Shown here piece by piece: positions 5,858-22,840 of a DNA stretch of 24,000 bases. Below the pieces are notes generated by a model. That model made no database searches. It worked only from the letters and a program-made list of their open reading frames with translations, and had not been told where the DNA came from. The stretch lies in NCBI GenBank assembly GCA_903877165.1, contig CAIRCU010000006.1, positions 1-24,000 of the forward strand. The letters are read 5' to 3'. The stretch is from Methanobacteriota archaeon (GTDB lineage: Archaea > Thermoplasmatota > E2 > DHVEG-1). Numbering within the stretch: position 1 is the stretch's first letter; every line of letters begins with the position of its first letter. A program made the translations under genes and the position numbers.

Positions 5858-6913
5858 TTAGGTCACCTTTTCCGTTAACGGTTCGATCGCGTCGATGATG
5901 CCGGCGACGCCATCGGTGAGCGGGTCGACGACAGGGACATGAAACAGATTAGCATAGCGTTGGATGACTGCAGGCATTTGGGCCGGTGAGAGATGCTCAT
6001 GGTTCAAACCGATCCCAAGCAATGGTTTTTCCGTTAAAAGCTCAGCGATGGTGACGACGCGTTTGGGATCCGGCATGGGATAGCCTGGGAAGCCGTCGAG
6101 ATGCGGCCGGCCCGGGGCATCCATGAGCAGAAACCCATGGACGCGACCAGCAGCGAGGATTTCGAAACCGCCGGGGAAAAAGGGATGGACGAGGCTGCCC
6201 TGCCCTTCGATGACGATGAACTGCGGATGGTCGTCCCTCCAGCTGTCGATGATGGCGCCTTCGATACCGCCGGAGACGAAGTCGTTGATGAGGGCGTCGA
6301 GGACGACGCCATGACGCCAGCCCTGCATCCAGCCGGTCTGCCCCGTGAAAATCATGTCCGCGCTGTACCCGCGTTTCCGAAGCTCGTTGACCAAAACGAC
6401 GGCCATGGTGCGTTTACCAATCGCGGAGTCCGTGCCAAGCAAGGCGATGCGCACCGACGGGATGTTGATTATTTCCCCGGTGTAGAACCGCTTGTGGTCC
6501 CGGTAGATTTTCCGTACATCGGTGATGGTGCAGCCGTGTTTGTTAGCGAGAGCGACGCAGCGCGGCTTGTCCGAAATGAACTCGTGCAGACCGGAGACGA
6601 CGTTGAGGCCATGACCAAGGGCCCATTCGACCGCGCCCTCGTACCCCGATGGGAGGACGCCGCCTTCGGAGACCGCGCCGACGATGAAGGTCTCCGGCTT
6701 GGTTCGCATGACTGCAGTCTCAAGTGAAGGAAAGACGGGAATGCCGCTGGGTTTTCCATCCAGGATCTGTCCGGCGTCGCCGCCAGGCAGCGTGGAGTCA
6801 ACGACGCCGACGATGCTGTAGCGTTGGCAGTAGCGGACGAGGCCATGAGCGGTCTTGCCGTCGGTCGCGGTAAAGAGCCGGTCAGCGTACACGATAGCGC
6901 GTGGTAAGGTCAT
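5858..6913 (-). CDS. DUF1611 (DgcN-like) protein: Rossmann-like N-domain plus P-loop-like C-domain
   Basis: 351 aa. The opening (AIVYADRLFTATDGKTAHGLVRY...) and the mid-region GTDSAIGKRT loop fit my memory of the DUF1611/PF07755 family. It is tightly packed between two co-oriented genes. Confidence 0.65.
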   Translation of the reverse strand: MTLPRAIVYADRLFTATDGKTAHGLVRYCQRYSIVGVVDSTLPGGDAGQILDGKPSGIPVFPSLETAVMRTKPETFIVGAVSEGGVLPSGYEGAVEWALGHGLNVVSGLHEFISDKPRCVALANKHGCTITDVRKIYRDHKRFYTGEIINIPSVRIALLGTDSAIGKRTMAVVLVNELRKRGYSADMIFTGQTGWMQGWRHGVVLDALINDFVSGGIEGAIIDSWRDDHPQFIVIEGQGSLVHPFFPGGFEILAAGRVHGFLLMDAPGRPHLDGFPGYPMPDPKRVVTIAELLTEKPLLGIGLNHEHLSPAQMPAVIQRYANLFHVPVVDPLTDGVAGIIDAIEPLTEKVT

Positions 6914-6961
6914 ACGAAGATCACGTTCGATGGTCCTGGAAAAGTCCTCACGCTGTTGGTG

Positions 6962-7978
6962 TTAGCGGAATTTCCTCCCCGTGAGAACAAGGACGTAATC
7001 GGAGTTGAGGACGCGGTGCTGTTTGAATCTGATGAGTGCTTCGATGGGGCTGGTGGAGGCGGGAAGCACGTTGAGGCCTTCGAAGTCTCTGAGGATCCTA
7101 TGGTACTTCATCATGGAGGCGTCACTGGCGTAGTCCGCCCAGCCATTGCTGTCGTAGATCGCGCTGAGGGCGTCGTCGCCGTCGTACGAATGGTAGCTGA
7201 TGAGCGGCTCGTTAATCGTAGTCTCATGGAGCTCCTCAGGGCGGAGGTCCTCGGTCTTGGAGGCACCGGTCTTGAAGCTGCGCACGATCGGGTTGCCACC
7301 TGGAGTGGAGGCGCCGACGAGGTAAGGAATGTGGTCAATGATGCCCTGGTCGAGCAGGTGTTTGAAGCCGTGGTAGATGCCGACGAGGGTAGTGCCGTTG
7401 CCGACCGGGGCAGCGACCGCGGTGGGGCAGCGGCCGAGCTGCGCGTAGATCTCAGTCGCGATGCTCATGTAGCCGCGCCAACCTTCGTTGCCGTTGCCTG
7501 GATTCGCGTCGTAGTAGTGCTCGGTCTTGGCGAGCCTTCGGCTGGCTTCGACCGCGTCTTCGTACTTATCGTAATCGCTGAGGATCTCTGCGCCGAGTGA
7601 GTGGAGCGTTTCGCGGCGATGCGGCGTCATGGTGTATTTCTCTGGGATGAGGATTTTTGCTTTGAGGCCGACTAGGTTGGCGAAGTACGCGAGTGAGACG
7701 CCGTAGTTACCGCACGTACCCACGGTGACGGTATCGTACCCCTCACGCATCGCCTTGTGCACGTGGTACTGAGAAATGCGGTCCTTCTGCGTCCCAGTGG
7801 GATTGCTGCCTTCGAACTTCAGGTAGATGTTCCCAAAACCCAGGAGCGACTCAAGGTTTCGCGCGTGAGTAAATAATGTTCCCCCAACCACCTTGGTGGG
7901 TGGCGGCTCCTCATCTTTTTGGAGGCCCAACACATCCATTTTTTGTAAACTCCCATGTCCTTTGACGATTTGGGACAA
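6962..7978 (-). CDS. Fold-type II PLP-dependent enzyme, threonine-synthase-like
   Basis: KFEGSNPTGTQKDR is the PLP-lysine motif (compare NPTGSFKDR in ThrC/CysK). PVGNGTTLVGI is the phosphate-binding Gly loop (compare PVGNAGN in ThrC). The listed start at 7978 is TTG, and an ATG 13 codons in (7939, MDVLGL...) is an alternative. Confidence 0.8.
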   Translation of the reverse strand: MSQIVKGHGSLQKMDVLGLQKDEEPPPTKVVGGTLFTHARNLESLLGFGNIYLKFEGSNPTGTQKDRISQYHVHKAMREGYDTVTVGTCGNYGVSLAYFANLVGLKAKILIPEKYTMTPHRRETLHSLGAEILSDYDKYEDAVEASRRLAKTEHYYDANPGNGNEGWRGYMSIATEIYAQLGRCPTAVAAPVGNGTTLVGIYHGFKHLLDQGIIDHIPYLVGASTPGGNPIVRSFKTGASKTEDLRPEELHETTINEPLISYHSYDGDDALSAIYDSNGWADYASDASMMKYHRILRDFEGLNVLPASTSPIEALIRFKQHRVLNSDYVLVLTGRKFR

Positions 7979-9384: not shown

Positions 9385-10287
9385 ATGGCCTACTGTACAC
9401 GCTGCGGGGTGCAGAACCCCGAGGATGCACACTACTGCAGTAAATGCGGATCCCTGCTGGCCGGGTCCAGCGTAGACCTCGAGCGGCACATCCATCATTT
9501 CTCCCAGGAAGTCGAGGAGTTGGGCCGGCGGCTTGACCGCTCAATCCAGAACAGGGAGCGGCGTCACGAGTCATGGTACGACCGCACGTTCGGCGTCTTC
9601 GGGCCACTCATCAGCAGCGTCATCGGCCTGCTAGTCCTCCTGCTCGTCATCCAGGCGCTCATCACGGTGAGCGGCCAGGGTGTATGGCCCATGCGGGTCG
9701 CCAACTTCCTTAAGAACTACATCGGGGTCCTATTCGTACTCATGCTGATTGGGGGATACGTCTCGTATCTCTCCCGGAAGTACCGTCCGTTCCGCTGGGT
9801 CGCGCCGCTCATCGGCGGCATCATCTTCTACATCATGCTGTGGCTAGTGAGCATTATCCTCTCAGCTCTCAGCGTGGACCTCGCGAACCAGACGCTTCAG
9901 ACCATCTCCAATCAGTTCACGGTTCTCGCCTTGCCGCTGACGTTCCTCATCGTCGGCTTAGGGTACATCGGATTGTTCTTCTCACTATCACGACATGACG
10001 ACCATCCGCTGCCTCCCACACCGCCATCACCGACGCCCGCACCGTCGGCAGCCCCGGTTCAACCACCCATGCCAGCGCCCGTTGCGCCGCCCGCGCGCCT
10101 CTATCGCTCGGGGCGGGAGCGGATTCTCGGCGGGGTCTGCGGCGGCATCGCCGAGTACCTCAACATCGACCCGGTCATCATCCGCGTGGTGTTCGTCATC
10201 GGCATGGTCCTCTCCTTCGGCGTCCTCGTCCTCGGGTACTTCCTACTGTGGATCCTCGTGCCGCGCAACCCCAGTCATCCATGGTGA
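9385..10287 (+). CDS. Membrane protein: N-terminal zinc ribbon, four TM helices, Pro-rich linker, C-terminal PspC domain
   Basis: MAYCTRCGVQNPEDAHYCSKCGS (CxxC-x12-CxxC); hydrophobic helices; PPTPPSPTPAPSAAPVQPPMPAPVAPPA; then LYRSGRERILGGVCGGIAEYLNIDPVIIRVVFV, the PspC signature. Confidence 0.8.
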   Translation: MAYCTRCGVQNPEDAHYCSKCGSLLAGSSVDLERHIHHFSQEVEELGRRLDRSIQNRERRHESWYDRTFGVFGPLISSVIGLLVLLLVIQALITVSGQGVWPMRVANFLKNYIGVLFVLMLIGGYVSYLSRKYRPFRWVAPLIGGIIFYIMLWLVSIILSALSVDLANQTLQTISNQFTVLALPLTFLIVGLGYIGLFFSLSRHDDHPLPPTPPSPTPAPSAAPVQPPMPAPVAPPARLYRSGRERILGGVCGGIAEYLNIDPVIIRVVFVIGMVLSFGVLVLGYFLLWILVPRNPSHPW

Positions 10288-10324
10288 CCAGGAAAAGAAA
10301 GCAGCCCTGAAGCACCATCCCCCC

Positions 10325-10330
10325 TTTTTT
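10325..10330 (+). terminator. C-rich/oligo-T tract after the PspC gene
   Basis: CCCCCC followed by TTTTTTGTT, 38 nt after the stop. The same interval also lies downstream of the minus-strand tRNA-Gln(UUG). Confidence 0.4.
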
Positions 10331-10346
10331 GTTCCTCCTTGTGTGA

Positions 10347-10417
10347 CAGCCCCGGGCGGATTTGAACCGCCGACGTTGGCTCCAAAGGCCAAAATGTTGC
10401 CACTACACCACGGGGCT
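10347..10417 (-). tRNA. tRNA-Gln (anticodon UUG), 71 nt, no encoded CCA
   Basis: Hand-folded cloverleaf: AGCCCCG TG GTGT AGTGGCA ACAT T TTGGC CTTTGGA GCCAA CGTC GGCGG TTCAAAT CCGCC CGGGGCT G. All stems are Watson-Crick or G-U. It has A1-U72 and G73. Confidence 0.9.
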
Positions 10418-10449
10418 ATAGACCTACCCGGTAACAGAGCCATGGCATT

Positions 10450-12132
10450 TTAAGGTTTAGGACCCGCCGCGCTCTGAATCTTCCCCCATGTGTCCCGCAG
10501 TTCCGTCGTGCGGTTCAAGACGAGATGGCCGGGGGTCGTGTCAGTGTCGACGCAGAAGTACCCGAGGCGTTCGAACTGGAAGCGATCTAGCGGCTTGCAG
10601 GTCTTGACCGCTGGCTCGACCTTACACTGCTGCAGGATCTCCAGGGATTGGGGGTTCAGGAGCGTCTTATAGTCGGCGCCCTTCTGATCCAGGGGATCGC
10701 GTACCGTGAACAGCTTGTTGTACAATCGGACTTCAGCGTCCACGGCGTCCGATGCGGACACCCAGTGGATCGTTGACTTCACCTTCCGGCCGTCCGGGGC
10801 GTACCCGCCCTTGGTCGCCGGGTCGTACGTGCAGCGCAGCTCCACGACCTTTCCATCGCGTTTGACGACATCCCGGCAGGTGATGAAATACGCGTAGCGC
10901 AGCCGTACCTCGCGGCCCAGGGCGAGACGGTAGAACTTCGGCGGCGGCTGCTCCATGAAGTCGTCCTGTTCGATGTACAGGGTCTTGGAGAACGGGATCC
11001 GCCGCGAGCCCATGCCCGGGTCCTCAGGGTTGTTGACGGCGTCGACCTCCTCCTTGGTCTCCGGGTAGTTCTCAATCGTCACTTTCAATGGCCTTAGGAC
11101 GCCCATGTACCGCGGCGCGGTCTTGTTGAGATCCTCGCGGATGCAGTACTCGAGGAACTCGAAGTCCACGATGCTGTTGACCTTGGCGACACCGATGCGC
11201 TTGGCGAACGTCCGGATCCCTGAGGGTGAGTACCCGCGTCTGCGCATCCCGGAGATCGTCGGAAGCCTTGGGTCGTCCCAGCCTTTGACGAGGCCGTCAT
11301 TCACGAGTTGCAGTAGCAGCCGTTTGCTCATCACCGTGAAGGTGAGGTTAAGGCGGGCGAACTCGATTTGCTGCGGGTGGTACACGCCGAGGGCGTCCAG
11401 GAACCAGTCGTACAGCGGACGGTGGTTCTCGAACTCAAGTGTGCAGATCGAATGCGTGATGTGCTCGATGGAGTCCTCGAGGCCGTGCGCCCAGTCGTAC
11501 ATTGGGTAAATACACCATTTATCCCCTGTGTTGTGATGGGTGGCGCGCAGGATGCGGTACATCACCGGGTCGCGCATGTTGAGGTTCGGGTGGTTCATGT
11601 CGATCTTTGCGCGCAGGACCTTGGAGCCGTCCGGGAACTCCCCGGCCTTCATGCGGCGGAACAACGAAAGGTTCTCGTCGATGGAGCGGTCGCGGTACGG
11701 GCTCTTCGTCCCTGGATTGGTGAGGGTGCCACGCAGCTCCGCGATCTGGTCCGCGGTGAGGTCGTCGACGTACGCCTTGCCTTTCTTGACAAGGTCTTCT
11801 GCGTACGTGTACATCTGGTCGAAATAGTCGGAGGCATAGAACAATCTGTCCTGCCAGTCGAAGCCGAGCCATTTGACGTCCGTGATGATGGACTGGACGT
11901 ACTCCTCTTCTTCTTTGGCTGGGTTGGTGTCGTCGAAGCGCAGGTTGCATTTGCCGTTGTACTGCTCGGCGATGCCGAAGTTCAGGCAGATGGATTTCGC
12001 ATGGCCGATGTGCAGGTAGCCGTTTGGCTCCGGTGGGAACCGGGTATGTACGCGTCCCTGGTACTTGTTGGACGCGAGGTCCGCGTCGATGATCTCTCGG
12101 ATGAAGTCCTTGCTTGCCTGCGGCTCGGCCAT
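10450..12132 (-). CDS. glnS: Glutaminyl-tRNA synthetase, bacterial type
   Basis: Near-colinear with E. coli GlnS as I recall it: [63 protein letters not shown] (HIGH), TVMSKR (KMSKS), and C-terminal FQFERLGYF...NRT..LRDTW. The track start at 12138 is GTG. The ATG at 12132 (MAEPQ...) has a GGGAG 8 nt upstream and is preferred. Confidence 0.95.
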
Positions 12133-12164
12133 CTTCACATCTCCCTTTTCTTGTGGTGATGAAG

Positions 12165-12236
12165 CAGCCCCGAGCGGATTCGAACCGCTGACAAGAGATC
12201 CAGAGTCTCCTATGTTAACCGCTACACCACGGGGCT
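12165..12236 (-). tRNA. tRNA-Gln (anticodon CUG), 72 nt, no encoded CCA
   Basis: Hand-folded: AGCCCCG TG GTGT AGCGGTTA ACAT A GGAGA CTCTGGA TCTCT TGTC AGCGG TTCGAAT CCGCT CGGGGCT G. The acceptor and D stems are identical to those of the UUG isoacceptor. Confidence 0.9.
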
Positions 12237-12278
12237 ATGCGACTTGGGTGAAACAGAGAGCAGATAAAAAAAGGTAGC

Positions 12279-12286
12279 TATAATAC
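12279..12286 (-). promoter_or_regulatory. TATA-like box (minus strand GTATTATA) upstream of tRNA-Gln(CUG)/glnS
   Basis: Lies about 45 nt upstream of the mature tRNA 5' end. An adjacent T8 tract (12264-12274 region) could be an alternative TATA, or the terminator of the upstream gene. Confidence 0.4.
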
Positions 12287-12368
12287 TTTTCAGGGCGTCC
12301 CGGCGCGATAGACGGGTGGGAGAAGCCCGTGTTGAGGACGGGGGACGCGAAAGGAGAGGCAGTGCGGT

Positions 12369-12638
12369 TTATCCTTTGGTGAACAGGATGTTGCCGGAGG
12401 GGGTCATGGCCTGGAGGGATTCGTTGTTCTCGATGTAGAGGGTCAGGTGCTGTCCCTGAATCTCGCAGCCCAACAGGACGTAGTCCGTGGCGTCCACTGG
12501 GTAGAGCAGGATGTTGGGGATGAGGGTCCCTTGGGTGGTTTCCCCTGAGTCGAGGCTCAGTTCAACCGTGGCCTGGGTCTGAGTGATGCTTGCGTTCAGG
12601 GTCTGCGTCCAGTTGCCGTTGATGTCGAAGGTGTCCAT
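12369..12638 (-). CDS. Hypothetical sequon-rich beta-rich domain protein (possibly the C-terminal part of the upstream gene)
   Basis: 89-aa ORF with no signal peptide, no Shine-Dalgarno and no promoter. It is in the same frame as 12687..13310 and separated from it by a single TAA plus 16 sense codons. Confidence 0.45.
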   Translation of the reverse strand: MDTFDINGNWTQTLNASITQTQATVELSLDSGETTQGTLIPNILLYPVDATDYVLLGCEIQGQHLTLYIENNESLQAMTPSGNILFTKG

Positions 12639-12686: not shown

Positions 12687-13310
12687 TTAGAACGTGACGT
12701 TGACGTCGTCGAGGTAGTACGTGCGGCTCGTCTCCCAGGTGCCCCAGACGCCGATGCTTATGTAGAGCGTGCCGGTGGCACTTGAGGTCGCGACGAAGTC
12801 GTAGGATTTCGGGAACCAGATGAGGTTGGTGGTGTTCACGCCGTTCCCGGTCTCATCTTGGTAGATGAGTCCTGCTGAGGCTGGGGGTTCGGCGGTGACG
12901 CTGGTGATGATGCGGAAGAGGTTCATGCCGTAGTCCGAGGTGCCGAACTGGTAGGAGACCGAGATGTAGTACTGGGATGTTGGGTCGACGTGGAAGGCGC
13001 GTTGGATCCAGATCTTGCCTGCATCGTTGAGGTTGTCCAGCTGGAGTTGGAGGCTGGTGGTGCCGTCCATTGCTTGGGTGGTGGTCCGGTTGATCCACCA
13101 GTGGACTGGCGGGTCGAGAAGGTCGGTGCCGTTCGCGGTCCAGTTGTCCATGGATGTTTCGAAGGATGATCTGGTGGAATTGACGTGCGGCTGCGAGGGA
13201 GGTGGGTGTTGGGTCGCAGGGGTGCTGGTGTAGATGATGGCGATGCCGATGGCGGTCAGGGAGAAGACGATGAGGCAGATGATGAGAATAGCTTTAGTCG
13301 CAAGGCGCAT
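12687..13310 (-). CDS. Hypothetical secreted or membrane-anchored protein
   Basis: 207 aa. N-terminal signal anchor (AILIICLIVFSLTAIGIAIIY) followed by a beta-rich region with many N-x-S/T sequons. I recognise no family. Confidence 0.6.
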   Translation of the reverse strand: MRLATKAILIICLIVFSLTAIGIAIIYTSTPATQHPPPSQPHVNSTRSSFETSMDNWTANGTDLLDPPVHWWINRTTTQAMDGTTSLQLQLDNLNDAGKIWIQRAFHVDPTSQYYISVSYQFGTSDYGMNLFRIITSVTAEPPASAGLIYQDETGNGVNTTNLIWFPKSYDFVATSSATGTLYISIGVWGTWETSRTYYLDDVNVTF

Positions 13311-13391
13311 AGGAGTCTCCTGCGGGTCTGCGTAAGGTGTTCCGCGCTTTTTACCCTTGTGGAAAATGTTGGGGATTCACCGAACCACGAT

Positions 13392-13841
13392 TTATGGGAA
13401 CAGGCGGTAGACTGTCACGTTATCCCAAATGCTTTGTCCATCCTGAAAAGTGACTCTCACCCCTAACGTTGGAGCATGCCCAAAGATCGGTACTGGGATT
13501 GGATTCACAGGCCAGCCGAAAGGCGGTGCAGTCTGAATGCTCCCTTGTCCGTCATAGTAGACCATAATGAGCACAATACCATCACCGCCGCTGATAGAGA
13601 TTCCCATTGGTATCTCACGCTTGAAACGGTAATGCAGGAAAAGTGGAACGGAGTAGTTCGCGATCTTATGGTCGTTCCAATACAGCCCGTTCTCTGGGGT
13701 ATTGTGGAATGCGATTGGATCCTGCATGACGGTGGATGTCTTGTACGAAGGAACCGTTCCAGCGACCGTCAGCGGGGCGATGAGACAAAGACAGACGATG
13801 ACGAGTCCGACACTCTTTCCCCCATTCCGTTTCCCCGGCAT
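13392..13841 (-). CDS. Hypothetical small secreted protein
   Basis: 149 aa with a signal peptide (SVGLVIVCLCLIAPLTVAG) and AAGGAG 8 nt upstream of the ATG. GC content is lower than in neighbouring regions. Confidence 0.6.
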   Translation of the reverse strand: MPGKRNGGKSVGLVIVCLCLIAPLTVAGTVPSYKTSTVMQDPIAFHNTPENGLYWNDHKIANYSVPLFLHYRFKREIPMGISISGGDGIVLIMVYYDGQGSIQTAPPFGWPVNPIPVPIFGHAPTLGVRVTFQDGQSIWDNVTVYRLFP

Positions 13842-13995
13842 ACAAATCGCTCCTTAAGTAGTAAGAATACAACGATGTCTACTTATTTTTTTCGTAAATG
13901 CTATTTAAAGACGAGTTCGGTTTTATTAGAGAAGGAAGTAGCCGTTGCGGCTTTCCTGTGTGTTTCGTCATGGTCTCTTTGGTTTTTTCGAGGCA

Positions 13996-14008
13996 AAAAA
14001 TATATAGG
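13996..14008 (+). promoter_or_regulatory. TATA box (AAAAATATATAGG) for the PQQ-repeat gene
   Basis: Centre lies about 36 nt before the ATG at 14038. The track start at 14020 (TTG) would sit too close to the box. Confidence 0.5.
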
Positions 14009-14037
14009 ATGGCAGATATTTGTTACACCGGGTTCGT

Positions 14038-15642
14038 ATGAGAGGAGTAGCAATCCTGGTTGTCTGCATCGTCCTAATGCAAGGGATGCTGGTTATCGCG
14101 GGTGAAAACTCGGGACAAACGGGGATGTCGCGGGAAGAGATGCTGAAGTATCAGTCTTCTTGGGAAGTGAGTGGTTCTGGCAAAGCTCTCACATCCAACG
14201 CCATAAGTGAGATCCCTTCGATGCAGAGTGCGTCCCCATTATCGTTCACGGAGGGCCCTATGGATTCGCCCTGGCCAATGCTGAGCCATGACAGTGTTCA
14301 TTCCGGTAGAAGTCAATACAGCACGAAAAACGTTTCTGGGGCAGAACTATGGCAGGTTCATGGGGACTCTTCAGGGGAAGTATGGAGTTCAGCAGTGATT
14401 GATAAAAATGGCACCATTTACTTTGGTACACTTGGTTCCGATTCAGGTTTGTATGCCTTGTATCCGAACGGGACAAGAATATGGAGATACCATGCACATG
14501 ACTTGATTTGGTGCACACCTGCTCTTGCGGAAGATGGCACCATTTATTTCGGCACCTGGGGCTCCTATTTCACTGCTGTGAAACCAAATGGACAAGAGAA
14601 ATGGTTATACCCTGCAGGGATGTGTTACTCTCCCGCAATCGCAAAGGATGGCACAATCTATTTTGGTACAGACAGTCGCTTTGTGTACGCCTTGAACCCA
14701 AATGGGACGCTGAAATGGCGGTATCTGACCGGGTATATCGTCTTGGGATGCCCCGCTCTGGGAAGCGATGGCACAATCTATATTGGCTCCGGTGACTACA
14801 ACCTCTACGCCCTCAACCCCAACGGCACTCTCCGCTGGCTTTTCCACACCGGCGGCTACATCAAAGGATCCGCCTCCATCGCACCAGATGGCACAATATA
14901 CGTGCCAAGCTTCGATGGCTACTTGTACGCAGTAAACCCGAATGGGACATTGCGATGGAAGGCATCTACCGGCGGGAGCGTTGCTGGCGCCGGGGTCGCC
15001 CTAGCCGCTGATGGAACAATCTACATCGGTACCGATCAGCTCCGGGCATTCTATCCCAATGGCACCCTGAAATGGTGTACCAACGTACAAGGATATGTCT
15101 CTGCCACAGTCCCTGCGGTCTCCGGTGATGGCACGATTTTCGTAACCGGTGGAAGTAACCTGGTCGCCGTGAACCCGGATGGAACGGTGAAATGGCGCTC
15201 CACGATTTCTAACGAGCAGTGCCATTCATCACCCTGCATTGGTCCAAACGACCGGGTCTACGTCGGCTCCATTTATCGAGACTATGGGTATCTCCATGCG
15301 TTTGGGCCCGGTGAGCCGAAGAAAATCGAGATTCTCCAGCCGCAGCTAGGGCATCTCTACATCTTTGACAATGACCATGGACGGACACTCTTTAACCGTA
15401 CTGTCATCATCGGAGCGGTCACCATCAAGGTGAACGTCTACAGTCCGGACGAGATCATCAACGTCTCATTCTATATCGATGACTTCCATGCTTCCGTCAC
15501 CAGCCCTCCGTATGAATGGAGAATGGACCAGAGGTACGGAAAAAAACCGCTGATGAAAGGCTCCATTACCGTGGTTGGGTACTACAAGGGTGGACCATCC
15601 TGGACCGAGTCGATGCCCGTGGTCTACTTCCATCTCCTTTAA
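14038..15642 (+). CDS. Secreted PQQ-like (BamB-type) beta-propeller repeat protein with a C-terminal Ig-like domain
   Basis: Signal peptide MRGVAILVVCIVLMQGMLVIAG. At least eight repeats of the form DGTIYFGT....LYALNPNGTLKWRY. The last approximately 110 aa form a separate beta-sandwich-like region. Confidence 0.85.
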   Translation: MRGVAILVVCIVLMQGMLVIAGENSGQTGMSREEMLKYQSSWEVSGSGKALTSNAISEIPSMQSASPLSFTEGPMDSPWPMLSHDSVHSGRSQYSTKNVSGAELWQVHGDSSGEVWSSAVIDKNGTIYFGTLGSDSGLYALYPNGTRIWRYHAHDLIWCTPALAEDGTIYFGTWGSYFTAVKPNGQEKWLYPAGMCYSPAIAKDGTIYFGTDSRFVYALNPNGTLKWRYLTGYIVLGCPALGSDGTIYIGSGDYNLYALNPNGTLRWLFHTGGYIKGSASIAPDGTIYVPSFDGYLYAVNPNGTLRWKASTGGSVAGAGVALAADGTIYIGTDQLRAFYPNGTLKWCTNVQGYVSATVPAVSGDGTIFVTGGSNLVAVNPDGTVKWRSTISNEQCHSSPCIGPNDRVYVGSIYRDYGYLHAFGPGEPKKIEILQPQLGHLYIFDNDHGRTLFNRTVIIGAVTIKVNVYSPDEIINVSFYIDDFHASVTSPPYEWRMDQRYGKKPLMKGSITVVGYYKGGPSWTESMPVVYFHLL

Positions 15643-15705
15643 AATACGGTATCCCCTTGGAAAGCAACAGTTAAAACATCCTTCTGATATCCAAGCCTTA
15701 GTCTT

Positions 15706-16113
15706 ATGCACGAATGGGCACTTGCCGAATCCATCCTTGCCGCCGCAGAGAAAACCGCGACACAAGAACACCTTAAAACCATCAAGGAACTCACCATCAA
15801 CCTCGGTGAACTGCAGCAGATCGACCGTGGCATCCTGCGCTTCGCCCTCAAAGCACTTGCCGACGAACACCCAAGCTTCACGAAAGCGAAATTCGTTTTC
15901 AAGACCGAAAAAAGCCAGTTCACCTGCAACGTCTGCGCCCACACCTGGGATTACAAGGACCTGAAAAAAACCCTCGGCGCAACCGAGGCAGAGGCCGTCC
16001 ATTTCATCCCCGAGGCCGCGCTCGCGTACGTCCGCTGCGTCCGCTGCGGCAGCCCGGACTTCCAGATCACCAAAGGCCGCGGCGTCACCCTCGCTACCGT
16101 GAAAGGAACCTGA
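15706..16113 (+). CDS. hypA: Hydrogenase nickel-insertion metallochaperone HypA (archaeal long-insert type)
   Basis: N-terminal MHE nickel motif (MHEWALAESI). Zinc site CNVC ... CVRC, with an approximately 38-aa insert between the CxxC pairs as in Thermococcus HypA. Confidence 0.85.
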   Translation: MHEWALAESILAAAEKTATQEHLKTIKELTINLGELQQIDRGILRFALKALADEHPSFTKAKFVFKTEKSQFTCNVCAHTWDYKDLKKTLGATEAEAVHFIPEAALAYVRCVRCGSPDFQITKGRGVTLATVKGT

Positions 16114-19979: not shown

Positions 19980-20540
19980 TTAGTAGAGTGGGGGCAGCTT
20001 CTCCGCCATGATCTTTTCGATTTTATAGGGGAGAAGGTTGCGGTTGACTGGGGTGACTTCGAGGATGCGGATGTCGTCGCGGCGTCTGATATCTTGCAGG
20101 AGTGGGGTCCTGGATTTCTTGTGCAGGGTGACCAGGATGGGTTTGTCGGAGTCCAGGGCTTCGATGACGACTTCGCAGAAGCGTTCGGAGAGCATTTCCA
20201 TTTTACCGATTTCGTCGATGACGATGATGTCGATGGCTTCTTCGTTGACGGCGCGCTCTATCGCGTGGACGCCGACGCGTTCGAGGGAGAAGAGGTCGAC
20301 GCCGTATTTGCCGACCTTGTCCTTGCATTCCATGTCGAGTTTCGCAAAGACTGCTTTTTCCTTGGTCATCCAGTCTGCGACATAGAAGCCGACGCGTTTC
20401 TTCTTCTCAACGATCGGCTCGGATATCATCCCTTCGACGGTATACCCGCTCTTCTCGATCTTCTCGATGATCTTGATGAGCGTCTCGGTCTTTCCGACGC
20501 TGGGCATCCCGGTGATACCGATCTTCGGGATATCGTCCAT
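19980..20540 (-). CDS. Nucleoside-triphosphatase THEP1 family
   Basis: KIGITGMPSVGKTE (Walker A) and IIVIDEIGKMEM (Walker B). It aligns along its length with Aquifex THEP1 as I recall it. Confidence 0.75.
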   Translation of the reverse strand: MDDIPKIGITGMPSVGKTETLIKIIEKIEKSGYTVEGMISEPIVEKKKRVGFYVADWMTKEKAVFAKLDMECKDKVGKYGVDLFSLERVGVHAIERAVNEEAIDIIVIDEIGKMEMLSERFCEVVIEALDSDKPILVTLHKKSRTPLLQDIRRRDDIRILEVTPVNRNLLPYKIEKIMAEKLPPLY

Positions 20541-20602
20541 AGTTCGTATAGGTAATGCGATTGGAATTTAGAAAGCTTTGGTATATGAAATAATCGGCGG
20601 TG

Positions 20603-21286
20603 TCACGCCTTTTTTTTCCTTGCGAGGAACGGCCCGGCGAGGATGTACACCAGGATCATTACCAGGAGTAGAAGGGGGCCAGCGATCCTCAGGAGGATTA
20701 CGAGCGCGAGTGCGGTGATGATTACGAGGCTTGCCACTACAGTTGAGCGGTTCCCCAGTTTTGGAAAAAGGAGTGACGAGATTTTCATCAGACCGAGGAG
20801 AACGAGCACAGCGACGATGACGAGCGGCGGGAACCACGTGGTCCCCAACATCCCGAGAGATATGACGATGATGGTGCTCGCCGATGCTGGCAGGCCGACG
20901 AACACCTCTTTTTCTTTCAGGAGGTGGAACGATGAGAGCCGTGTCGCGGAGCAGAACAGAAAGAACAGCATCCCTGCGAGGAGGAGAGCGAAGACTACAG
21001 GATTCAGCGACGTCGCGGTGTACACCCCGTAGAGGAATACCAGGGGGGCGATCGTCAGGGAAGTCAAGTCCGCCATCGCCTCCAAGTAGTCGCCGACCTG
21101 TCCGCTGCCGAACCTGCGGGCGACGACGCCGTCCAGACCATCCGCAAGCAACGCCAGCAGAATCAACACAAACGCAAGGGGGAACTGCCCGGAGAACACC
21201 GCGAGGACAGCGAGCAGCCCGAAGCAGGCATTGAGAATCGAGAGCAAGTCTGCGGCAGTCAGGAATCTAAGCATGGATGTCGGCAA
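20603..21286 (-). CDS. pssA: CDP-alcohol phosphatidyltransferase, archaetidylserine-synthase-like
   Basis: DGLDGVVARRFGSGQVGDYLEAMADLTS matches D-G-x2-A-R-x8-G-x3-D-x3-D. Multi-TM protein of 227 aa. It overlaps the upstream decarboxylase gene by 20 nt. Confidence 0.8.
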   Translation of the reverse strand: MPTSMLRFLTAADLLSILNACFGLLAVLAVFSGQFPLAFVLILLALLADGLDGVVARRFGSGQVGDYLEAMADLTSLTIAPLVFLYGVYTATSLNPVVFALLLAGMLFFLFCSATRLSSFHLLKEKEVFVGLPASASTIIVISLGMLGTTWFPPLVIVAVLVLLGLMKISSLLFPKLGNRSTVVASLVIITALALVILLRIAGPLLLLVMILVYILAGPFLARKKKA

Positions 21287-21914
21287 GGGTATCCTCTCCT
21301 GCTTTCACTTTATCACGGAGTTTCACGGCAAGCGTGGAGACGGCAGCCTTGGGAAGATACACGTCCACGCGCGAACCCAGACGGATCAACCCGATGCGAT
21401 CCCCTTTCTTCACTCGGTCGCCTTCCTTGATGTAGGGGATGATGCGTCGGGCGACGGTCCCCGCGATCTGCATGACTTTCACGCGGCCAACCGAAGAGTC
21501 GAAAAGTAGTGTCACGCGCTCGTTACGTTCGGAGTCCTTGGAGAACGCGGGGAGATGGCTTCCGTTTGTATGCTCCAGGCGGACGACGGTGCCGTCGACC
21601 GGGCTTCGATTCACATGCACGTTGTGGATGTTCAGGAAGGTCTTGACCCAGATGCAGGATCCCACATCCGGGTCGTCCACAGGGGAGATGCCGGTGATGA
21701 TGCCGTCAGCGACCGCGACGATTCCGGATCCGATGGTTCGCTCGGGATCACGGAAGAATACCACGAGGAGAACCAAGCCTATGATTCCAAGGAAGGTGAG
21801 GATGAGAAACCCGAAGCGTAGAAGCCCCTGGAGAACCATGCTGGCAGCGACGCAGGCGACCGTGACTAGCCCGACGCCCACGATCCATGCAAGACCGCCA
21901 CGCGCGATCCTCAT
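21267..21914 (-). CDS. asd: Phosphatidylserine/archaetidylserine decarboxylase proenzyme (short archaeal type)
   Basis: N-terminal TM helices, then FFRDPER...HNVHVNRSP.DG and the self-cleavage-site-like LIRLGSRVDVYLP. It overlaps the archaeosortase gene stop by 4 nt. Confidence 0.8.
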   Translation of the reverse strand: MRIARGGLAWIVGVGLVTVACVAASMVLQGLLRFGFLILTFLGIIGLVLLVVFFRDPERTIGSGIVAVADGIITGISPVDDPDVGSCIWVKTFLNIHNVHVNRSPVDGTVVRLEHTNGSHLPAFSKDSERNERVTLLFDSSVGRVKVMQIAGTVARRIIPYIKEGDRVKKGDRIGLIRLGSRVDVYLPKAAVSTLAVKLRDKVKAGEDTLADIHA

Positions 21915-22840
21915 GTGTGTTTCCCTCTAAAGATATGTTCAAGGGGGCCGTTGCGTTTCGGCAGTGAAATCGCATCCATGATTTCATCGTATAACTCCGG
22001 GACAATCTTGAACGTGAGGAACAGCAGCGCGATGAGCGCAAGTAAGGAGCCGACCTTGCCGATGACGTTGTGCGCCATCTCAAAGGAGACGATACTGTCT
22101 CCGGTGAGTATCACGACTCCGGCGTTCCGCACCAGGTTCAGAAGGTAGACGGGGACGACTGTGGCAAGCAACGCGATGGCCCTGCGTTTCAGAGGGATCT
22201 TCGGCAGGGCGCCAAGCATTCCGACGAACAGCAGCAGGGACTGGATTGCTGTACAGGCGAAGATGATCCGGATGGGGACGTCATTGTACAGAATGTTGGG
22301 CCCGTTCTGTACGGCACCGACCCCAAACAGATGGAGCAGCCAGACGGTCTGTCCGGCGACGGCCACGATGAGGCCGTCTCGGGCGCTGGGCAGCAGGATT
22401 TCAAGCGAGAAGTAGATAATGCCCGCTAGGAACGTCGCTCCTGCGATCCATTTCAGGGCGGAGGGGTGTTCATCGCGCTCTTTGGAGAGCCATTCGTGGT
22501 ACGCCAGGTAGACGAGGACGTAGATGCCGACGACGCAGAGGGCGGCATTGAAAATATCGCCTCCTTCGGAGAAGTACAGCAGATTCGGATAGGTGGACCA
22601 AAACAGGGCGAAGAGCACCCAGCCGGTCATCTTCAGCTGGCTTCCGCGCTGCTTCTGACTGTCGAGTGTGCCGGCGCCGAGCAACAGCAGGCTGCTGAAG
22701 AGCGGGACTGCGATAACCCATTGGTAGGAGGGCTGCGGGTACGGGAAGAGGAAGAAGTTGACGAGGAGCATGGCTGACGGTCCGCCGAGGAACCACGCCA
22801 GAATCCGAAGATCCTTCCCAGATGTCTGTGATAGCGGCAT
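21911..22840 (-). CDS. Archaeosortase/exosortase-family integral membrane transpeptidase
   Basis: 309 aa, polytopic. Candidate catalytic Cys in IIFACTAIQS (compare the C-S/T-G-I block), Arg in LNLVRNAGVV and His in FEMAHNVIGK, in the order expected for the family. The subclass (ArtA versus others) cannot be called by eye. Confidence 0.7.
   Translation of the reverse strand: MPLSQTSGKDLRILAWFLGGPSAMLLVNFFLFPYPQPSYQWVIAVPLFSSLLLLGAGTLDSQKQRGSQLKMTGWVLFALFWSTYPNLLYFSEGGDIFNAALCVVGIYVLVYLAYHEWLSKERDEHPSALKWIAGATFLAGIIYFSLEILLPSARDGLIVAVAGQTVWLLHLFGVGAVQNGPNILYNDVPIRIIFACTAIQSLLLFVGMLGALPKIPLKRRAIALLATVVPVYLLNLVRNAGVVILTGDSIVSFEMAHNVIGKVGSLLALIALLFLTFKIVPELYDEIMDAISLPKRNGPLEHIFRGKHT

Follow-up and report, generated by a model that had tools for sequence, protein, structure and literature searches.

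The view that archaea lack glutaminyl-tRNA synthetase (GlnRS), on which an earlier note on the DNA analysed here had relied, is still stated in reviews of 2021-2022 (PMC9499178, PMC8007984). Other papers describe GlnRS genes as missing from many archaeal genomes (PMC9976931) or "almost all" archaea as being without the enzyme (PMC8762117), and a survey of 2,588 genomes counted 0 GlnRS in archaea (PMC5388404). This absence has been ascribed to an archaeal tRNA-Gln co-adapted, by A73 and A1-U72, to the amidotransferase GatDE (PMC9499178, PMC8762117, PMC2330236). The pair A1-U72 is a GatDE determinant and archaeal tRNA-Gln is not chargeable by the GlnRS of Escherichia coli or yeast (PMC2330236), and a discriminator rule gives A73 for archaeal and G73 for bacterial tRNA-Gln (PMC9499178). 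Here we analysed a stretch of 24,000 nucleotides from a Thermoplasmatota archaeon (contig CAIRCU010000006.1, positions 1 to 24,000), called the window below, in which a bacterial-type glnS gene stands between two tRNA-Gln genes in the order tRNA-Gln(CUG), glnS, tRNA-Gln(UUG). We call this arrangement the cassette.

The closest described layouts come from other systems. In pylS-pylT, a synthetase gene lies beside the gene of its own special tRNA, apart from the older tRNAs of the host; the cassette is similar in that an aminoacyl-tRNA synthetase gene adjoins its own dedicated tRNA, and differs in that it brings in neither a new amino acid nor a new codon, that the tRNAs appear to derive from the tRNA-Gln of the host instead of being imported, and that both isoacceptors are included. 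Co-transcripts of tRNA and mRNA are known from the E. coli thrU-tyrU-glyT-thrT-tufB operon and from mitochondrial tRNA punctuation. Like these, the cassette has a seemingly promoterless coding RNA just after a tRNA, which would be freed by tRNA processing; unlike these, its mRNA encodes the synthetase of the same tRNA, the host is archaeal, and the co-transcription is deduced from sequence. GlnRS genes beside cox genes have been reported for Heimdallarchaeia (Hodarchaeales, Kariarchaeaceae) (bioRxiv 10.1101/2024.07.04.601786). These are likewise archaeal-encoded and belong to another phylum and a cox-cluster neighbourhood, and that preprint makes no statement on flanking tRNAs or G73. In the literature searched by full text, no description of a Thermoplasmatota GlnRS, an archaeal G73 tRNA-Gln or the cassette was found.

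We consider it likely that a direct glutaminylation system was acquired once from bacteria by one Thermoplasmatota lineage, was paired with dedicated G73 tRNAs and is co-expressed with them. The closest sampled donors would be Pirellulales, and the bacterial-type GlnRS would owe its function in an archaeon to pairing with a tRNA-Gln class of its own. These tRNAs would combine an archaeal body and the weak A1-U72 pair with the bacterial G73, G2-C71, G10 and a pyrimidine-U-G (YUG) anticodon, and would have a regular D arm in place of the tRNA-Glu-like D arm of A73 tRNA-Gln. The anatomy of the cassette, its conservation, its link to G73, and the presence of A73 tRNAs and gatD in some relatives were observed directly.

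The tRNA-glnS-tRNA unit and its enzyme

The whole unit lies on the minus strand. Order and coordinates of the three genes, as given in the earlier note, proved exact when examined with ARAGORN, Rfam and open reading frame (ORF) reading, and the 32-nt length of both spacers and the GGGAG of the first were likewise seen in the sequence. The two tRNA genes are the only ones found in the window by ARAGORN and Rfam; the gathering score of Rfam RF00005 is 29. The features are as follows (SD, Shine-Dalgarno; BRE, transcription factor B recognition element).

12291..12286, minus strand: BRE-like GAAAAG, read from the sequence, upstream part of candidate promoter P1
12285..12278, minus strand: TATA-like box TATTATAG of P1, its end 41 nt from the 5' end of tRNA-Gln(CUG)
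12266..12272, minus strand: T7 run between P1 and tRNA-Gln(CUG)
12165..12236, minus strand: tRNA-Gln(CUG), ARAGORN, Rfam RF00005 61.1 bits
12133..12164, minus strand: spacer 1, 32 nt, with SD-like GGGAG, without a TATA-like box and without an oligo-T run
10450..12132, minus strand: glnS, 560 residues, ATG at 12132, stop codon ending at 10450
10447..10454, minus strand: candidate promoter P2, TATA-like CTTAAAAT, its end 29 nt from the 5' end of tRNA-Gln(UUG)
10418..10449, minus strand: spacer 2, 32 nt, without an oligo-T run
10347..10417, minus strand: tRNA-Gln(UUG), ARAGORN, Rfam RF00005 63.2 bits
10291..10301, minus strand: T-rich tract CTTTCTTTTCC, candidate oligo-T terminator of the unit

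The TATA-like box that the earlier note had placed at 12286..12279 reads GTATTATA, with GAAAAG just before it. The GGGAG of spacer 1 is at 12145..12141, 8 bases 5' of the glnS ATG, the glnS stop codon TAA (10452..10450) lies inside the CTTAAAAT box, and the CTTTCTTTTCC tract adjoins the stop codon of a convergent PspC-domain gene.

By its sequence the product of glnS is an intact, ordinary bacterial-type GlnRS with predicted glutaminylation activity, and the bacterial length, HIGH and VMSKR motifs, paired beta-barrels and missing N-terminal extension named in the earlier note were all recovered. It matched the NCBIfam model TIGR00440 (glnS) with 732.7 bits (cut-off 425.8) over model positions 1-524 of 524, and stayed below the thresholds set for GluRS, in the archaeal as well as the bacterial model. 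The Pfam domains were tRNA-synt_1c, tRNA-synt_1c_C (PF03950) and tRNA-synt_1c_C2 (PF20974), so that both C-terminal beta-barrel anticodon-binding domains (PF03950, PF20974) were matched, and the class I motifs HIGH and VMSKR were present. The crystal-structure sequences of Pseudomonas aeruginosa and E. coli GlnRS aligned end to end (E = 2.5e-212 and 3.3e-208, respectively). Human and yeast GlnRS aligned with their C-terminal bodies only, from their residue 249-286 onward, which corresponds to residue 25-26 of the window enzyme, and in these alignments the eukaryote-type N-terminal domain of about 200 residues was absent from the window enzyme. Compared with bacterial GlnRS (E. coli glnS, 1GTS and 1QTQ; P. 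aeruginosa 5BNZ), domains and length are the same, and so are the catalytic residues and those touching the acceptor and the anticodon.

Residues were compared in 130 members of the archaeal clade described below, using E. coli numbering. The glutamine pocket (R30, Y211, C229 and Q255), K270 of the KMSKS motif and the anticodon readers R341, R402, R410, R412 and Q517 were invariant in 130/130, and I129, L136 and P181, on the acceptor side, were present in 127 or more of these sequences. The differences from the E. coli enzyme, apart from the archaeal host, are an Asn at position 235 and the lack of R130, a loss peculiar to the archaeal clade. D235 reads the 3-70 pair, and the E. coli D235N mutant is PDB 1QRS. 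Asn235 was found in all 130 clade members, in the nearest Pirellulales and in 14/80 bacterial sequences. An archaeal adaptation of this residue to C3-G70 was thus rejected, since the nearest bacteria also have Asn; at most, Asn235 may be a pre-adaptation to C3-G70.

The best NCBIfam score was that of NF011291, a GlnRS/YqeY fusion of the Deinococcus type, of which only positions 10-560 of 769 were matched. Judged by this model and the alignments, the YqeY C-terminal domain is absent and the window GlnRS ends at residue 560. The relatives P0010, P0019 and P0040 were named "glutamine--tRNA ligase/YqeY domain fusion protein" by the NCBI pipeline. NCBI gives this name to many clade proteins, for which it is misleading: they stop where the match to the model ends.

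Recurrence of the cassette and two classes of tRNA-Gln

Recurrence was examined in two ways. In a GlnRS-anchored set, made of the genomic loci of 11 different clade proteins, the exact order tRNA-Gln(CUG)-glnS-tRNA-Gln(UUG) on one strand was found for 7 of the 11 (loci L082-L085, L087, L086, L088/L089, L134 and L135); the other 4, namely L131, L132, L133 and L001, were variants, and a G73 tRNA-Gln lay within about 1.4 kb of glnS in 11/11. In an enzyme-independent scan, JGI metagenomes were searched with 32 nt from the body of tRNA(UUG), which gave 41 loci. In 35 of these, at least about 100 nt of upstream sequence was available and glnS stood directly upstream of tRNA(UUG) in 35/35; in the other 6 the tRNA(UUG) lay less than 100 nt from the contig end. 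Where the locus spanned the 5' end of glnS, tRNA-Gln(CUG) was directly upstream of it in 19/19. The synteny, whose recurrence in related genomes the earlier note had proposed to examine, is thus kept. Recurrence in dozens of independent assemblies excludes chance. Clustering of the flanking ORFs placed the intact cassette in at least 5 different neighbourhoods.

In the bacterial comparison, tRNA-Gln(CUG) was found less than 3 kb from glnS in 5/60 loci, mostly on the other strand, and two-sided flanking of glnS by tRNA-Gln was found in 0/60, unlike the tRNA-flanked archaeal gene. The five loci were L014, L025, L028, L043 and L056, three of them Anaerolineae/Anaerolineales. There may be a loose glnS-tRNA-Gln association in some bacteria, apparently above chance.

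Both window tRNAs have A1-U72, G2-C71, C3-G70, G10-U25, G37, A38 and G73, and CCA is not encoded. The full E. coli identity set, reportedly established by Jahn in 1991 and Hayase in 1992, comprises G73, a weak 1-72 pair, G2-C71, G3-C70, G10, Y34-U35-G36, A37 and U38. Of this set the window tRNAs share G73, a weak 1-72 pair (A1-U72), G2-C71, G10 and the YUG anticodon (Y34-U35-G36), and they differ by C3-G70, G37 and A38; the E. coli tRNA-Gln has U1-A72, G3-C70 and A37/U38. The E. coli-type identity elements of tRNA-Gln are also treated in PMC9976931. The A1-U72, G73, G2-C71 and G10 reported in the earlier note were read in both tRNAs, which have an archaeal body with the bacterial-type G73. The GatDE-type combination of A1-U72 with A73 is not found in them: A1-U72 is present and position 73 is G in both.

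Every cassette tRNA examined had G73. The first pair was A1-U72, or G1-U72 in two loci; in the latter, the tRNA-Gln(CUG) genes at 3962-4036 of L092 and 2525-2599 of L118, the pair is still weak and G73 is kept. The tRNA(UUG) was 100% identical across loci whose GlnRS were only about 79% identical. Among 15 distinct tRNA sequences, 99.4% of cells were paired, 10 of 21 pairs changed on both sides, and the acceptor stem was nearly invariant; by these paired cells, compensatory changes and acceptor stems, the cassette tRNAs are under selection as tRNAs.

A second kind of tRNA-Gln was found in three variant loci. L131 and L132 have the order tRNA-Gln(CUG, G73), glnS, tRNA-Gln(UUG, A73), tRNA-Gln(UUG, G73), tRNA-Glu(UUC), the cluster of the last three lying just after glnS (4742-5067 in L131, 4741-5038 in L132). 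In L133, two intron-bearing G73 tRNA-Gln genes (CUG and UUG) are followed by an opposite-strand glyoxalase-like gene, glnS and a tRNA-Gln(CUG, A73). An intact gatD of 430 residues (5858-7150; GatD_N, Asparaginase, Asparaginase_C) lies about 1.2 kb from glnS, so that glnS, the two G73 tRNA-Gln, the A73 tRNA-Gln(CUG) and gatD are all within 7 kb. The L133 GlnRS shares 84% identity with the enzyme from the complete genome CP070672.1 (L001), which has a G73 tRNA-Gln(UUG) 620 nt upstream of glnS and, after a CdhD-like gene at the place matching L133 gatD, purH. Two further features were seen at 1400-2300 of L133. Each G73 tRNA-Gln (CUG, UUG) has a 51-nt intron at the canonical position, and the tRNA 5' fragment AGCCCCGTGGTG is repeated several times, in each case with an A-rich stretch and a TTTAAATATAGTA-like box behind it; the repeats may be duplicated promoter/leader modules or remnants of integration at tRNA-Gln.

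The two kinds differ in the D arm. The A73 tRNAs of L131-L133 have a longer D loop ending CAAUCAU, in common with the neighbouring tRNA-Glu, and the two that were aligned also match tRNA-Glu in a non-standard 13-22 pair. In the G73 tRNAs the D stem is regular, with four pairs and G10, and the loop is shorter. Acceptor stems are the same in both classes. The flanks of the 7 exact-cassette and 41 metagenome loci contained no A73 tRNA-Gln, and gatD and gatE were absent within the 24-kb window.

These archaea therefore have, besides the canonical A73 class, a second G73 class which is always near glnS. We infer that the GlnRS charges the G73 class and, with less confidence, that GluRS does not act on this class because its tRNAs have lost the tRNA-Glu-like D arm. 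Because A73 tRNAs occur in L131-L133 and gatD in L133, both pathways appear to coexist in at least some lineages. Compared with the archaeal route by non-discriminating GluRS (ND-GluRS) and GatDE, the product Gln-tRNA-Gln and the acceptor stem including A1-U72 are the same, and gatD and A73 tRNAs of that route are present in some GlnRS-bearing relatives; the predicted direct one-enzyme route, G73 and the regular D arm are different. The two classes fit the published argument that the A73 of archaeal tRNA-Gln is a barrier to GlnRS acquisition (PMC2330236, PMC9499178). The terms "self-contained" and "complete cognate set", used in the earlier note, are unproven for the window genome; there are relatives with the second, A73 class, one of them with gatD.

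Transcription of the unit

In archaeal promoters the TATA box precedes the transcription start by about 25 nt. The element GAAAAG-TTATATA(T/G) of P1 was kept at the same distance in 22 related loci whose other upstream sequence differs. The T run after it is T7 in the subclade of the window and T4-T5 in the majority clade, and the T7 run may belong to the promoter as its A/T-rich proximal part, or may act as an oligo-T signal that ends transcripts of the upstream gene.

Spacer 1 measured about 19-48 nt in 23 relatives, with GGAG, GGGG or GAGG always shortly before the start codon (ATG in 22, GTG in 1). No TATA-like box was found in it in the window or in 18 majority-clade loci, two AT-rich relatives being less clear, and no oligo-T run in the window and most of the 23 relatives. 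A TATA box for a start near the ATG would fall in the GC-rich 3' end of tRNA(CUG). Since spacer 1 is too short to give glnS a promoter of its own, co-transcription of glnS with tRNA(CUG) from the GAAAAG-TTATATA element is strongly implied.

Spacer 2 is different. Majority-clade loci have 66 non-coding nt here, including AATGCATAYNCTTAAATAAAATCAAAGATTCC, a stretch more conserved than the adjoining 3' end of glnS and the early spacer. The box TTAAATAAAAT upstream of tRNA(UUG) was kept in 28 distinct majority-clade sequences and ends 24-25 nt before the tRNA. In the window subclade and L086, the glnS ORF extends to a TAA within the box, and the window reads CCTTAAAAT. Counted from its first base, the box lies 35 nt before tRNA(UUG) in the majority clade, the corresponding figure for the window (TTAAAAT) being 36 nt, and the leader after the box is alike in the window and majority forms (TACCGGGTAGG and TTCCCGGTATGAG, respectively). 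By position, CTTAAAAT is the counterpart of TTAAATAAAAT, and a separate promoter for tRNA(UUG), overlapping the stop codon of glnS, is probable. Downstream of tRNA(UUG), relatives have T5-T10 runs at 0-45 nt. No terminator-like hairpin was found in 10100-12500 by a sigma-70 promoter/hairpin scan, which is unsuited to archaea. Because nothing stops read-through from glnS, both this route and a separate start could produce tRNA(UUG).

The earlier note had seen no TATA-like box and no oligo-T run in either spacer and had read the locus as a single tRNA-mRNA-tRNA transcript. The reading of spacer 1 and the missing oligo-T runs were upheld, and spacer 2 has the CTTAAAAT box. The single transcript is half supported: the sequence speaks well for it in tRNA(CUG)-glnS, less so in tRNA(UUG), which has a conserved TATA-like box at promoter distance. 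In the expression that we propose, the BRE/TATA promoter P1 would drive tRNA-Gln(CUG), with glnS following 32 nt later behind an SD-like motif only. Cuts by RNase P at the tRNA 5' end and by tRNase Z after G73 would free the glnS mRNA. The tRNA-Gln(UUG) would be a read-through product and most likely also be started from P2 at the glnS stop codon, and the oligo-T tract would close the unit. Both promoters and the processing, like activity on these tRNAs and the orthogonality of the two tRNA classes, are predictions.

Origin, host and alternative explanations

At least 120 protein clusters (90% identity) matched the window GlnRS at 77-100% identity, most of them from JGI, ENA and Logan metagenomes. 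The named relatives were all "Candidatus Thermoplasmatota archaeon" or "Thermoplasmata archaeon", and include the complete 4.2-Mb genome CP070672.1. In a genome scan, the matches listed contained only bacterial GlnRS genes, at up to 72% identity, and 80 of these served as the comparison set. A neighbour-joining tree was built from 556 columns with 130 archaeal-clade sequences, the 80 bacterial sequences and E. coli. The 130 archaeal-clade sequences were split from the others in 100/100 bootstrap replicates, and the nearest bacteria among the 80 compared were two Pirellulales metagenome-assembled genomes, L002 and L008. A single origin of the clade is thus shown for the sampled sequences, and a single transfer from bacteria into the clade ancestor would fit this tree. 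Of the phylogeny that the earlier note had in mind, which included eukaryotic and other archaeal GlnRS, a separate single clade against the bacterial and E. coli set was obtained.

The enzyme is not an isolated case. Many of the at least 120 clusters are already named GlnRS in Thermoplasmatota by NCBI and IMG, and at database level the enzyme is routinely annotated across the host lineage, which the earlier note had listed among the outcomes that would speak against its reading. The genes are public and were named by automated pipelines, and their product belongs to a known family without standing out in it. Unusual are the host, the G73 tRNAs dedicated to the enzyme, and the conserved layout of a synthetase gene between tRNA genes with its probable co-transcription. 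In one relative, L124 (2039-3583), glnS aligned as three pieces in different frames with the rest of the cassette intact, and this is either a frameshifted pseudogene or the result of assembly errors.

The contig is archaeal, neither chimeric nor bacterial. Archaeosortase A, archaetidylserine synthase and decarboxylase, Trm1, a THEP1-type nucleoside triphosphatase (NTPase) and dCTP deaminase are on the same contig, all but the last about 7-11 kb from glnS, and the genes on either side of the cassette are common to relatives. The window proteins that were looked up were all on one NCBI/ENA contig of 66,805 bp; members of the cluster of the window NTPase were also on contigs of 179 kb, 73 kb and 24 kb bearing GlnRS relatives, and the cassette neighbours recurred in independent ENA, JGI and NCBI assemblies, including contigs of 785 kb and 179 kb. 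The glnS gene has a GC content of 0.60 and a third-position GC content (GC3) of 0.84, like the window average, and its tetranucleotide correlation with the window (0.86-0.88) is as in other segments. These archaeal neighbours, matching composition and recurrence exclude a bacterial or chimeric contig, so the doubt raised in the earlier note was settled by homogeneous composition and archaeal gene content.

Some features elsewhere in the window were also recorded. Positions 13001-16000 are a composition outlier (GC 0.51-0.52 versus about 0.58 elsewhere; tetranucleotide correlation about 0.50 versus 0.75-0.90 elsewhere) containing a gene for a 540-residue PQQ/beta-propeller repeat protein (14020-15642, plus strand) and an unassigned ORF at 13476-14105; this stretch may be a more recent acquisition. 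At 19980-22840, genes for archaeosortase A, an archaetidylserine decarboxylase-like and an archaetidylserine synthase-like protein stand in a row with overlapping ends, followed by those of the THEP1-type NTPase and then Trm1. Archaeosortase A and the two archaetidylserine genes look like a lipid-anchor protein-sorting gene set. At 10158-10203 (minus strand), a weak match to the C/D-box small RNA sR34 (24.1 bits, gathering score 40, E = 0.21) lies antisense within the PspC-domain gene and is probably a chance match.

Several observations weigh against the acquisition and co-expression proposed here. The tRNAs have C3-G70 in place of the E. coli determinant G3-C70, and G37/A38 in place of A37/U38. 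The tree is distance-based and without eukaryotic or other archaeal GlnRS, and the archaeal clade was defined by the top 120 database matches, only some of which have a taxonomic name. The P2 box of the window subclade overlaps coding sequence and is seen in six fairly close sequences only, and promoter calls were made by consensus resemblance and conservation. As to expression, the cassette might have one promoter and one tRNA-mRNA-tRNA transcript, without an internal start and cut by RNase P and tRNase Z. Short spacers, free of oligo-T runs and terminator-like hairpins, and the fixed gene order agree with this, but tRNA(UUG) is preceded, at about 24-29 nt, by a highly conserved A/T-rich box. 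Majority-clade loci have this box in a 66-nt non-coding spacer, in a stretch more conserved than the adjoining sequence, and the window has CTTAAAAT at an equivalent distance. The separation of the tRNAs from glnS in L133 also means that these genes can be transcribed apart. We therefore regard a single transcript as rather unlikely. A weightier alternative is that GlnRS was an addition, the window genome keeping ND-GluRS and GatDE for an A73 tRNA-Gln elsewhere and the cassette being orthogonal to it. This is what L133 suggests, with glnS, two G73 tRNA-Gln, an A73 tRNA-Gln(CUG) and the 430-residue gatD within 7 kb, and also L131 and L132, where A73 and G73 tRNA-Gln(UUG) are side by side and adjoin tRNA-Glu. 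It has to be set against the 0 A73 tRNA-Gln in the flanks of the 7 look-up and 41 metagenome cassette loci and, as a weak point, against the lack of a GatD match on a long cassette-glnS contig among the best 120 matches listed. We regard this coexistence in the window genome as quite possible, though not favoured.

The remaining alternatives concern mobility and function. The earlier note had called the cassette portable as a unit, which found no support: the flanking ORF clusters contained no integrase or transposase beside it, and viral contigs had only distant GlnRS genes (at most 57% identity), without the cassette and without the archaeal form. Its occurrence in at least 5 neighbourhoods, the common use of tRNA genes as integration sites and the repeated tRNA 5' fragments near the L133 tRNA-Gln genes could still point to a mobile or recently transferred cassette, or the contig could be chimeric or bacterial. 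With archaeal genes about 7-11 kb from glnS, neighbours on both sides common to relatives and recurring in independent ENA, JGI and NCBI assemblies, GC, GC3 and tetranucleotide profile of glnS at the window average, no adjoining integrase or transposase, and no archaeal form on viral contigs, this is largely excluded and very improbable. Mobility is not needed either, because dependence of glnS on the tRNA promoter would keep the cassette intact through rearrangement. It seems hardly credible that the protein no longer charges tRNA-Gln, whether as a relic or as a moonlighting paralogue, as conservation is full-length, 130 sequences show no change in the catalytic, glutamine-binding and anticodon-reading residues, and linkage to functional-looking tRNA-Gln genes is tight. 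Returning to a single acquisition with dedicated tRNAs, we tentatively suggest, as a possibility somewhat short of probable, how it came about: the host tRNA-Gln set may have been duplicated, the copies changing A73 to G73 and losing the tRNA-Glu-like D arm so that an orthogonal pair arose, which coexisted with the old pathway, as in L131-L133, and then replaced it in the window lineage, the new tRNAs and the enzyme remaining linked as a co-expressed cassette.

In conclusion, the locus and its relatives are a natural counter-example to GlnRS-free archaea, and one that carries its own explanation. The enzyme invariably comes with tRNA-Gln genes that join the bacterial discriminator to an archaeal tRNA body, which may explain how its adoption was possible, and the old evolutionary argument on the tRNA barrier becomes directly testable. 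The clade offers a naturally evolved candidate orthogonal synthetase-tRNA pair, and the cassette a rare archaeal case of an mRNA whose 5' end apparently depends on tRNA processing. If the route through duplicated tRNAs is true, living lineages would show the crossing of the long-proposed tRNA barrier to GlnRS.

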